From: an uncultured Chlamydiales bacterium
Lineage (GTDB): Bacteria; Chlamydiota; Chlamydiia; Chlamydiales; FEN-1388
Assembly: GCA_963785335.1 (NCBI GenBank)
Contig: CAWAUW010000002.1
Location: 168,952 to 232,951 of the forward strand
Length of the DNA stretch: 64,000 nt
Reading direction: 5' to 3'
Shown: positions 8,787-46,822 of the stretch, in pieces
Layout: every line of letters starts with the position of its first letter
Numbering within the stretch: the stretch's first letter is position 1
Notes under the pieces: model-generated
Told to the model about the DNA's origin: nothing
Database searches by the model: none
Seen by the model: only the letters and a program-made list of their open reading frames with translations
Position numbers and translations under genes: made by a program

Positions 8787-8987
8787 GTGTACATTATGAA
8801 ATAAGATCTCATAAAAAACAAGTGTATTGGAAAAATACGGGGCCGGTGGTGGGGTAAAAAGAATCAATGATTTCATAAAGAAACACTATAATCTATTTTA
8901 TCCTCTGAATTTTGCACTCTCTTTTTTATCGTTTTTATCGTTATATCGTTATATCGTTTCAATCTTTGAAATTTGACTTCACCGGAA

Positions 8988-9045
8988 AGTGCCGGCACAA
9001 AATGTATAATATATACAAAAAGTGCTGGCACAAAATGTATAATAT
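8988..9045 (+). promoter_or_regulatory. Tandem 25-bp direct repeat, each copy carrying an extended -10 box (TGTATAAT)
   Basis: AGTGCCGGCACAAAATGTATAATAT at 8988-9012 and AGTGCTGGCACAAAATGTATAATAT at 9021-9045 differ by one base. They lie just upstream of the ATPase ATG. Confidence 0.35.
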
Positions 9046-41967: not shown

Positions 41968-41983
41968 AAAAATAAATATAATT

Positions 41984-42692
41984 TTAACCGCAGAGAAAAC
42001 AGCCGAGGAAATACCGAGGAATACAATTAAAAAAAACACATGATAATAGGGGTAGTATTTTACTGCGGAAGCAGTTTAAGTGGGAAGCCCCGCGTGAAAT
42101 GAAAGGCCGGTAGGCCTGTAATGGAACGTGGGGATAAAATGAGCATATCATAGAGCTGCGGCAGCACATAAGCGTTAAGCTAACGTAAGTGCGTAGGCCG
42201 CAAGGTCTTCTGGAGTGCGGTAATTATTTACCGCTCTTAATTTTCGCCCACGCGCCTTCGCCTCAGTAGCCTCCAAAGCTAAAAAGCAGGTAAAAGTATA
42301 TTTAGCGAAAAGTCTTGCGGCACAGCTGAGGGTATTTGTATGTATTGGACCTTTATGAGGAATAGTGTGTGGTCGAAAATTAAGAGCGGTAAATAATTAC
42401 CGCACTCCAGAGCTTCGCTCAAGGCTACTGCTCACTAGGTGGTTACGTTAGCTTAACGCGTATGTGCTGCCGCAGTAGCGTTAAGCCTTGGCGTAAGTAC
42501 AGTTCATTTAATATTTTTTTCTTGATCTCGATCGTGATCTTAATCTTGATCTTCTTTTTAACATGTGCTTTATACTCAAAATACCGAAAAAAGAAAGATT
42601 AAGATTAAGATCAAGATCAAGATTAAGATCAAAAAATGGCTTAAATGAATGGTATTGGGCACCAGAGCCACCTATATACTTTATAGGTGGCT
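41984..42692. repeat. Intergenic stack of four palindrome types
   Basis: Word run at 41984-42030. Hairpin 42088-42133. Outer IR 42155-42188/42443-42475 enclosing the F2 element 42209-42246/42374-42411. GATCTT-word palindrome 42503-42650. Hairpin 42666-42692 followed by a T-run. Confidence 0.85.
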
Positions 42693-42698
42693 TTTGGA

Positions 42699-45778: not shown

Positions 45779-46750
45779 CTAATCTTGACGAAGCCTTTGC
45801 ACGCCTTTGATAGAAGACTCATACGTAATTTCAGGAAAATGACTAAGAAGTCGCCTGAGGCCAAAAGGAGTAATTTGCTCACAGTACTCTATATCTAGCT
45901 CTTTGATTTTACGTCCTGATGCAATAAGAACATCTACCCACTCATCAGTAATCTGTGAGCAGCCCCATAAATTAAGCTTTTCAAGGCTCTGGCACCTCGT
46001 AACTAATGCAGTAAATGCTTCAATGGTCATTTTTTCGCATTCTGCGGCTCCAAATTCTGTAAGCCCCTTGCAATATATAGAAGTTGCATAGACTGCGGCA
46101 TCTCTTAACAACGGACAACAATCAAATGAAATAACCTTGAGGGTAGGACACATCTTTACCACTGCTAGCACACCTTCGTAAGTTATGTGAGGGCATGCAA
46201 ACAAAGAAAGTTTCACTAAATTCGGGCAATAACGGGCTATTGCGAAAAGCGTTTTGTCTGTCAGGTTGGGGCATAATCCAATTTCAATTGTATGCATAAA
46301 ACGTCGATCTTCTAAAACACAAATAAATGCTTTATCCGTGATATAATTACCTTGTGGAAATGAAAGTTTAGTAAATGGTTGACGGTTTGCAAACCAGATA
46401 AAGTCTTCGTCAGTCATCTGAAAAGATGAATTTGCTCCGATTTCAAGCCAATCATAATATTGACTTCCTTCGGCTATATTACGACTATGTGGTTCCAATT
46501 CATCGTTACATTTGAGCGACATATTGTTAATGCTGTCAATTACTTCATCAAAGTTTTGATCATCATCTTGATCATCACAGAATCGAACAACTTTATGTTT
46601 TTTAAGTCCTTCATTTGGCCGCATGCCCTCTAAGCTTTGTTTTGTAACACGTGCGGTTTTTTCATCAAGGGATCGCTTTTTACTTCCATCTTCATGAATA
46701 GAAAAATCAACTAAGGTATCGATGTAAGGACGAGGAGAAGTAGGATGCAT
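45779..46750 (-). CDS. Eukaryote-like cysteine-containing LRR (LRR_CC / FBXL-AMN1 type) protein
   Basis: ~26-aa repeats of the form C.xLxxLxLxxCxxITDxxL (CPNLVKLSLFACPHITYEGV, CPTLKVISFDCCPLLRDAAV, CQSLEKLNLWGCSQITDEWV, IKELDIEYCEQITPFGL). ATG at 46750 is preferred over the extended start at 46822, which abuts repeat DNA. Confidence 0.7.
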   Translation of the reverse strand: MHPTSPRPYIDTLVDFSIHEDGSKKRSLDEKTARVTKQSLEGMRPNEGLKKHKVVRFCDDQDDDQNFDEVIDSINNMSLKCNDELEPHSRNIAEGSQYYDWLEIGANSSFQMTDEDFIWFANRQPFTKLSFPQGNYITDKAFICVLEDRRFMHTIEIGLCPNLTDKTLFAIARYCPNLVKLSLFACPHITYEGVLAVVKMCPTLKVISFDCCPLLRDAAVYATSIYCKGLTEFGAAECEKMTIEAFTALVTRCQSLEKLNLWGCSQITDEWVDVLIASGRKIKELDIEYCEQITPFGLRRLLSHFPEITYESSIKGVQRLRQD

Positions 46751-46822
46751 TTTAAGTCTCAATAATGTAAAAATCCGAGTGATTTTACCAACAAAATTCA
46801 CTAAAAATAAAGTTCTTTCCAA

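Follow-up and report, generated by a model that had tools for sequence, protein, structure and literature searches.

A 731-nt gap between convergent genes holds a stack of hairpin-forming sequences

We analyzed a 64,000-nt stretch of a contig from an uncultured Chlamydiales bacterium (hereafter the window) and focused on the 731-nt gap between two convergent open reading frames (ORFs), which encode proteins of 454 aa and 957 aa. The gap is the longest internal intergenic region of the window. A first-pass annotation, made from the sequence alone, had listed five features here: a run of related words, a hairpin within a hairpin, an outer inverted repeat that encloses an element of a family termed F2, a palindrome made of GATCTT words, and a last hairpin followed by a T-run. 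All five were found where it had placed them, far beyond what chance would give (Table 1). The segment with the word run is unstructured (fold z = -1.2 and -2.4). The hairpin at 42088 has an 8-bp outer stem with one G-T pair around AGGCC-GGTA-GGCCT (z = -4.2). The outer arms, of 33 nt, are 97% complementary, and they enclose the F2 palindrome, which has arms of 43 nt (98%); the whole F2 composite of 331 nt folds with z = -16. The GATCTT/AAGATC arms (42511-42559 and 42589-42637; 49 nt, 82%, z = -8.5) are extended by complementary flanks to 42498 and 42654. The last hairpin reads AGCCACCTATA-TACTT-TATAGGTGGCT and is followed by a T-run (z = -7.6). The sole ORF in the stack encodes 61 aa and has no Pfam match.

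Palindromes of this kind are not confined to the gap. A palindrome scan found 29 long palindromes in the window versus none in five shuffles. Nineteen were intergenic and ten overlapped the edge of a called ORF, several of the latter touching the probably spurious ORF 13966-14304, and none lay inside a credible gene. The first-pass annotation had counted four different palindrome families in the gap, and this count must be reduced. Multi-copy status could be demonstrated for F2 only; the word run is not a palindrome, the hairpin at 42088 and the outer inverted repeat are singletons, and the last hairpin is a conserved terminator, as described next.

Table 1. Positions of the stack components and of the two genes that border them.
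Feature	Position	Strand	Remarks
Upstream gene, 454 aa	40603..41967	+	without Pfam family; its stop codon bounds the stack on the left; ortholog in L102 with 82% aa identity
Word run TTTAACCGCAGAG...CCGAGGAA, words TTTAACCGCAGAG / CCGAGGAAATA	41983..42035	+	not a palindrome; second copy of the loop of palindrome 237-383
Hairpin within hairpin, CCCCGCGT...ACGTGGGG around AGGCCGGTAGGCCT	42088..42133	.	singleton
Outer inverted repeat, left arm, 33 nt	42156..42188	.	unique in window and loci
Mini-hairpin module AGGCCGCAAGGTCT, GCAA loop, one G-T pair	42195..42208	.	homologous in position to AAGCCGAAGGCTT of MAG copies (L085)
F2 left arm: TGGAGT + hairpin GCGGTAA-TTAT-TTACCGC + TCTTAATTTT	42209..42251	+	terminator-like when read inward
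F2 interior, 117 nt	42252..42368	.	about 85% identical to the L085 and L023 interiors; partly self-complementary
F2 right arm	42369..42411	-	reverse complement of left arm
Right spacer with mini-hairpin GAGCTTCGCTC and CTCACTAG	42410..42442	.	related to right-end module of CAYWZU01 copy L091
Outer inverted repeat, right arm	42443..42475	.	unique
Third, partial outer-arm copy AGCGTTAAGC..CGTAAGT	42476..42498	.	direct orientation; hairpin-forming with 42443-42475
Word-iterated palindrome: T-run, GATCTT words, loop, AAGATC words, A-run	42498..42654	.	built like the ATCGTT-word palindromes
Intrinsic terminator of the 454-aa gene, 11-bp stem + T-run	42666..42697	+	957-aa ORF stop codon 6 nt away; conserved in L102
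Convergent ORF, 957 aa	42699..45572	-	3' end conserved in L102; leucine-rich repeat (LRR) label unconfirmed

The stack is extra DNA relative to a syntenic locus

The 454-aa protein has a single relative, P0002, which is encoded on L102, a 1,645-bp Joint Genome Institute (JGI) metagenome contig; a genome-contig scan gave no match to the protein and a metagenome scan gave no further contig. L102 is syntenic with the window on both sides of the gap. On the upstream side it carries pgl (94% aa identity), and on the downstream side it has the hairpin, as AGCCACCTATA-A-TATAGGTGGCT plus T's, together with the 3' end of the window's convergent ORF. The spacing from stop codon to terminator hairpin is 41 nt in L102 versus 698 nt in the window. 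Because the last hairpin and the 3' end of the convergent ORF are both conserved in L102, we conclude from this alignment that the last hairpin is not a mobile element but the 454-aa gene's ancestral terminator; this corrects its earlier listing as one of the arrivals. The difference in spacing likewise indicates that 41968-42665 is entirely lineage-specific. Thus, the stack is extra DNA relative to L102, in agreement with the accumulation at this site that the first-pass annotation had supposed. With the direction read from two taxa, gain in the lineage of the window would be a simpler reading than loss in L102, because F2 is dispersed elsewhere. We found no duplication of the terminator hairpin that would identify it as a duplicated target. 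The relatives of the HIT gene of the window, L104 and L105, were not syntenic on the F2 side and gave no second empty site.

The core of the stack is a member of the F2 family

F2 elements are foldback elements of 170-330 bp without coding capacity. Each arm is built of TGGAGT, a 7-bp hairpin and then CTCTTAATTTT, and each contains the conserved subterminal unit TGGAGT-hairpin-CTCTTAA. The arm pattern GGAGTGCNG-N9-15-CNGCYCTTAA gave eight matches in the window versus 0 expected, and a covariance model of the arm found exactly 10 arms, which form five elements at about 7290, 29880, 32490, 42210 and 55700. The copy in the stack is about 85% identical over 200 nt to copies in two loci of related metagenome-assembled genomes (MAGs), L085 and L023. 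At least 20 F2 loci were found in Chlamydiales MAGs. MAGs that bear the labels Verrucomicrobia (69% GC), Terriglobia and Acidobacteria carry the arm unit as well, frequently as two inverted copies separated by about 100 nt. Of the single matches that the loose arm pattern gave in 596 Gb, most are due to chance; inverted doublets of F2 are present.

Four different stems occur in the window (GCGGCGA/TCGCCGC, GCGGTGC/GCACCGC, GCTGTGC/GCACAGC and GCGGTAA/TTACCGC), and their differences fall at positions that the search pattern leaves free. In the elements of the MAG CAYWZU01 (L079 5603-5770, L086 737-904 and L091 3174-3341) the two arms differ in stem, GCTGCGA/TCGCAGC versus GCGGTAA/TTACCGC, and each arm is self-complementary. 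Unlike stems in the two arms of one element argue that the local hairpin is conserved and not the pairing of arm to arm. Across 20 distinct arms, a set partly picked for hairpin presence (the non-chlamydial arms), 98% of cells pair, double changes occur in all three free pairs, and none of 500 shuffles reached the observed values. We conclude that the F2 arm hairpin is, as far as alignments can tell, kept by compensatory changes.

Both arms score as terminator-like when read inward (the hairpin plus TCTTAATTTT), and F2 arms could act as bidirectional terminators. Terminator-like arms and covarying stems would also be expected if the hairpins were selected as structured RNAs, kept as terminators, 3' stabilizers or small RNAs, and if their abundance reflected function and not mobility. 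GNRA or UUCG-type loops and G-T pairs occur in some of the mini-hairpins, and a sister family in the window falls just short of the threshold for the Rfam motif Acido-Lenti-1. Several findings speak against this explanation, which we consider very improbable. No Rfam family reached its gathering score in the window, where low-score microRNA-like matches merely reflect long hairpins. High-GC relatives retain CTCTTAA without the U-run, a divergent promoter gap contains one F2 copy, and mini-hairpins with a GAA loop are very stable as DNA too. The terminal repeats and target duplications described below favor mobility at the level of DNA. The RNA strand asymmetry of the 331-nt composite was uninformative, as the + strand folds 21 kcal/mol better and shuffles behave likewise (z = -16.4 vs -15.3).

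The outer inverted repeat is separated from the F2 arms by spacers of 20 nt on the left and 31 nt on the right, and no further copies of its arms were found in any of the data searched, that is, the window and the loci fetched from related genomes. The third arm copy, which abuts the right arm, has a score that 0 of 2000 shuffles reached, and it forms a modest hairpin with the right outer arm (z = -2.4). The resulting pattern, a...a'a'', fits two readings: insertion into a pre-existing hairpin, or a duplicated hairpin of which the left copy later lost half. The third copy may therefore be the remnant of a target duplication. Another possibility is that the palindromes were made in place, with the outer repeat and the word arms arising through slippage and through replication that folds back or switches template at a hairpin already present. 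The singleton outer arms and the partial copy beside them agree with such an origin, as do the GATCTT and ATCGTT arms of the word palindromes (see below), which consist of degenerate, locus-specific tandem words mirrored on both sides. Simple extension of a stem, however, would leave no unpaired spacers of unequal length between outer and F2 arms, and the ATCGTT-word palindromes are dispersed, with four copies that share their ends, indicating mobility. We regard formation in place as quite improbable.

Several other F2 arrangements were observed. The window elements 29787-30144 and 32463-32689 are near-identical, share extended ends (GGCCTAGGATGTTGATTTAAG...) and lie in opposite orientation 2.5 kb apart; they bracket the ORFs 30075-30920 (no Pfam match) and 30971-32371 in a layout like that of a composite transposon. 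At 55668-55833 a permuted F2 has its arms head to head, with the ACTCC ends 6 nt apart and the TTAA tails outward, and fills the whole 163-nt gap of two convergent genes. In L087 (3760-4270) the F2 arm unit forms a direct array and not an inverted pair: a tandem unit of about 216 nt is present 2.3 times and consists of a double hairpin, GCGGCGCCTTGGCGCCGC-TTTTAAGA-GCGGCAACACGTTGCCGC-ACTCCAAAAAA, followed by CTTCCGAAG hairpins.

Seven of 12 F2-type elements in related genomes are flanked by duplicated hairpins

Copies for alignment were drawn from the MAGs bin.577 (GCA_021372185.1), CAZEQY01, CAYWZU01 and JAYRNE01. Complete F2-type elements in MAGs are 259-281 bp long. Their outermost parts are 17-nt terminal inverted repeats, CTCGAGTTTGGACATTT ... 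AAATGTCCAAACTCGAG, inside which lie a mini-hairpin module that can be swapped (GCCGAAGGC or GAGCGAGCTTACGCTCGC), the F2 arm and a variable interior. In 7 of 12 copies a whole locus-specific hairpin of 23-31 nt is directly duplicated, flush against both ends of the element. The duplicated hairpin has 28 nt in L085 (TTTGCAGTAGCTGAACAGCTACTGCAAT), 29 nt in L088 (TCCCAGGGCATTCTTCGAATGACCTGGGC), 25 nt in L023 (GGCTCAAGGTGTyTCACCTTGAGCC), 29 nt in L072 (GGTAGGATGCTC.TACG.GCATCCTACCT), 27-29 nt in L086 and 31 nt in L077, and L091 has a diverged copy. The duplications are direct, as judged by asymmetric loop positions and by direct alignment scores at least as high as the inverted ones, and fold z-scores of the duplicated hairpins range from -4.7 to -8.8. 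Duplication length tracks hairpin length, suggesting that the cuts are placed by structure, at the base of the stem.

The remaining junctions add to this anatomy. The flanks are inverted in L037, where the element lies between the two arms of a hairpin, like the window copy. The copies in L045, L054 and L088 are flanked by a hairpin that forms the first one of an Acido-Lenti-1-like repeat, and in L009 the F2 core is inside an AACGATA-word palindrome. Taken together, we conclude that F2-type insertion in related MAGs is hairpin-targeted, insofar as junction sequences can establish it.

The word-based pieces recur beside F2 in varying combinations

The first-pass annotation had noted that the word run echoes the center of an element near 241-383, and the comparison bears this out. 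The run matches the loop of the palindrome 237-383 with about 80% identity over about 90 columns, and an exact 13-mer is confined to these two sites. Beyond that, the CAGAG/CCGAG word run recurs only as a loose motif, and so does the GATCTT palindrome. The latter shares its layout (a T-run, words of 6-8 nt, a loop and the mirror image), not its sequence, with four ATCGTT-word palindromes at about 250, 8920, 21360 and 48760. GATCTT words recur once, as a solo run at 32700-32735 that directly adjoins another F2 element. The hairpin at 42088 had no second copy in the window or the fetched loci.

Modules of the stack thus occur together elsewhere: AAGATTAAG words adjoin F2 at two window loci, and a run like the word run adjoins F2 in L054. 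Such co-occurrence would be expected of linked parts. We considered whether the stack arrived as a single composite insertion of a 650-nt mosaic unit, or is an ancestral block deleted in the L102 lineage, in either case without successive insertions. The location of the word run inside the ATCGTT-type palindrome 237-383, the AAGATTAAG words next to F2 at 32700-32735, and the position of F2 inside a word palindrome in L009 are all in keeping with this view, as is the single relative available, the spacer of which has a weak end-like motif. In contrast, F2 is present at four other window loci without the word run, and at three of the four also without GATCTT words; the combination of modules varies by locus, and the MAG copies have sharp ends and target duplications of their own. 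We therefore judge a single composite insertion or an L102 deletion to be improbable, and successive insertions are the preferred reading.

Related sequences were also observed away from the stack. Palindromes of CAGAG / CACTGAG words occur at 49996-50132, 51389-51539 and 62417-62583 of the window, and the loop of a bin.577 hairpin (L105 5490-5530), GACCGCAGAGA, recalls the ACCGCAGAG core found in the word run. An outer inverted repeat of 24 nt, made of GCGAAG words (ATTCACCGCGAAGATCGCGAAGAA; 48721-48744 / 48888-48911), surrounds one ATCGTT-word palindrome. Just past a half ATCGTT-word element, in a divergent gap, are two adjacent 27-nt direct repeats, AAAGTGCYGGCACAAAATGTATAATAT (8986-9012 and 9019-9045), each with the small palindrome GTGCCGGCAC and a TATAAT-like end. 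Mini-hairpins with GAA loops (GCCGAAGGC, AGCGAAGCT) recur at many element borders.

Hairpin targeting could account for nesting at the gap

Palindromes are nested within palindromes elsewhere in the window: 14107-14540 surrounds 14206-14386, which surrounds 14273-14318 (three levels), and 48721-48911 and 29787-30144 surround 48761-48869 and 29850-30077, respectively. A second stack of 817 nt, 13840-14656, also lies between convergent genes; it contains this three-level nest and a separate palindrome at 13954-14036, the ORF 13966-14304 inside it looks spurious by eye.

The first-pass annotation had suggested that the gap is a preferred landing zone, with elements that target each other or non-coding DNA, and had set clustering against random intergenic placement as the comparison. 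On the 64 kb available, the two were indistinguishable, because sequential random intergenic insertion matched the largest element count per gap (P = 0.97) as well as how many events were nested (P = 0.38). The suggestion that elements target each other is partly supported from another side: the F2 junction anatomy in related genomes and the co-occurrence of modules speak for it, whereas counts at the scale of the window and the window copies themselves do not. The lead that F2 seems to seek hairpins and duplicate them comes from related MAG loci and not from the window itself.

We propose that the gap is probably a lineage-specific nest of small non-autonomous hairpin-forming elements, a mosaic similar to miniature inverted-repeat transposons (MITEs) and to the bacterial interspersed mosaic elements (BIMEs) of E. 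coli, with F2 moved in trans by a hairpin-recognizing transposase. Under this proposal, the insertions would have come to lie behind the stop codon of the 454-aa gene and ahead of its original terminator, with the piece 42156-42498, an F2-family element, forming the core. F2-type elements would be moved in trans by a transposase that takes DNA hairpins or cruciforms as targets. This enzyme would either cut at the stem base, with repair duplicating the whole hairpin, or insert into the loop. Because each insertion would bring new hairpins, an occupied site would become a better target, and nests and palindromes within palindromes would grow where insertion is harmless, for example at the 3' ends of convergent genes. 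The partner transposase would be of the DDE type and behave like that of IS1630 or IS30, and the pieces other than F2 would have arrived independently.

Several observations weigh against this proposal. The comparison with L102 involves two taxa, so that the choice of gain over loss is an interpretation, and the L102 spacer holds ATTTGCCGCAAG, which is weakly like an element end (P about 0.02). The match of random insertion to the counts given above also counts here, as does the selection within the covariation set. The window F2 copies lack the MAG-type ends CTCGAGTTTGGACATTT, having locus- or subfamily-specific outer repeats instead, and they show no clean whole-hairpin duplication. Neither the outer inverted repeat nor the hairpin at 42088 nor most of 41968-42155 recurs in the window or the fetched loci, and these pieces are only putatively mobile. 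None of the 26 window ORFs scanned, about half of the 48 called, matched a transposase family, nor did the 10 ORFs scanned beside elements in four related loci, and there was nothing resembling a Y1 transposase in the sampled DNA, a small sample. No autonomous insertion sequence (IS) with the same ends was found in the window or the fetched loci.

Genomic context of the gap

The neighboring genes are housekeeping genes (OpcA, Pgl, RuvX, HIT and others). The named homologues are from Chlamydiales, Parachlamydiaceae and Verrucomicrobia MAGs, and the HIT protein is 81% identical to one from the MAG bin.577, JAJFUY01. The label "LRR gene" given to the 957-aa ORF in the first-pass annotation found no support, as Pfam LRR was absent even at E <= 5 and the LxxLxLxxN motif was absent. 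A database search with the C-terminal 300 aa of this ORF gave no match. Weak LRR matches were observed in its neighbor, the 347-aa ORF 45779-46822. The window contains no tRNA genes. Plasmid and viral collections held no relative, with 15-mer matches to viral contigs at about chance level by a rough estimate. Sequence-string searches of the literature and the Weinberg 2010 supplements yielded primers and chance matches only.

Comparison with known systems

F2 elements are short and non-coding and have multiple dispersed copies with shared ends, as MITEs do. Like the bacterial MITEs (Correia/NEMIS, RUP, BOX, ERIC, Coxiella QMITEs and Rickettsia RPEs), which are non-autonomous, 100-400 bp long and intergenic and have terminal inverted repeats, they have long hairpin folds, are sometimes nested, and may be able to terminate or stabilize transcripts. 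Terminal inverted repeats of 17 nt were observed in the MAG copies of F2-type elements, and locus- or subfamily-specific outer repeats in the window copies. In contrast to the short, fixed duplications of 2-10 bp typical of those MITEs, the F2-type duplication is a whole hairpin, and the F2-type ends and interiors behave as modules that copies exchange. Intergenic mosaics made of several types of repeat are also known as NIMEs/dRS3 in Neisseria and as nested small dispersed repeats in cyanobacteria, with small palindromic repeats inside larger repeats, but their sequences and taxa are unrelated and their recombinases are different or unknown. The cyanobacterial repeat HIP1 was not enriched in the window, which speaks against a cyanobacterial origin of the DNA.

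For hairpin-targeted insertion, the closest precedent is IS1630 of Mycoplasma fermentans, a member of the IS30 family. IS1630 makes long, variable duplications of 16-26 bp (PMC3317919, PMC2853133). It duplicates inverted repeats, as F2-type elements in MAGs duplicate whole locus-specific hairpins of 23-31 nt. It differs in being an autonomous Mycoplasma element of about 1.2-1.4 kb with its own transposase, whereas F2-type elements measure 260-330 bp, have no ORF and occur in Chlamydiales; we found no sequence relationship between the two, and the window F2 copies are without the duplication.

Repetitive extragenic palindromes (REPs), BIMEs and REP doublets (REPINs) resemble F2 in being extragenic hairpin units with a conserved tag beside a GC-rich stem, in forming inverted doublets and mosaic clusters, in lying often at gene 3' ends, and in receiving insertions of other elements. 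REPs moved by REP-associated tyrosine transposases (RAYTs) are defined by a GTAG (or CGTC) tag at one end of a hairpin of 20-40 nt (PMC3733652). F2 has the flanks TGGAGT and CTCTTAA in place of such a tag and is five to ten times longer; its MAG copies also have terminal repeats and target duplications, neither of which results from Y1 (HUH) transposition. Queries with IS608 TnpA and an E. coli RAYT in tblastn gave nothing below E = 0.4, Pfam gave none, and the best Y1 candidate ORF was a pirin. A RAYT/REPIN mechanism is disfavored by the terminal repeats with target duplication, by the missing GTAG tag and by the lack of a Y1 enzyme in the sampled DNA.

The CCCAGGGC...GCCCTGGGCTTTTATAAC...CAGGCCTTCAGCCTG repeat of the window has the two-hairpin architecture of Acido-Lenti-1 (RF01687). 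It forms 64-nt tandem units and inverted pairs, and on the + strand it scored 33.4 bits at 61738-61782 and 27.6 bits at 61867-61910, both below the 37-bit threshold; the repeat was also noted at 14066-14134 / 14513-14575 and 61526-61944. An inverted doublet in a Terriglobia MAG (L084 1557-1602) scored above the threshold, at 48.7 bits, and the 731-nt gap itself contains no match. Rfam files Acido-Lenti-1 as a candidate small RNA of Acidobacteria and Lentisphaerae, whereas here it behaves as a dispersed repeat, the first hairpin of which, in MAGs, is a target duplicated by F2 insertion.

Significance for chlamydial genomes

Because the TGGAGTGCGG-hairpin-CCGCTCTTAA unit is shared, F2-type elements might extend into Verrucomicrobia and Acidobacteria. 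One could then imagine a MITE superfamily across Chlamydiales and these phyla, with a transposase that reads the structure of DNA and not its sequence, attacks the base of an extruded hairpin or cruciform and so duplicates the hairpin, so that terminators and palindromic repeats become self-amplifying landing pads that build nests. We offer this wider picture tentatively and consider it unlikely to hold in full.

Environmental chlamydiae are, to our knowledge, not known for REP- or MITE-like repeats, and this chlamydial genome has about one long palindrome per 3 kb, all outside credible genes. The elements have practical consequences as well: they break MAG assemblies, with many copies at contig ends, push terminators hundreds of bases away from their genes, and can create spurious ORFs, apparently including 13966-14304, as judged by eye. 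If F2 does pick hairpins by their shape and duplicate them, this would provide a simple explanation for nested repeat mosaics in bacteria. It would also be a second IS1630-like case, non-autonomous and far more widespread, and some candidate small-RNA motifs, such as Acido-Lenti-1, could be reread as mobile DNA or its targets.

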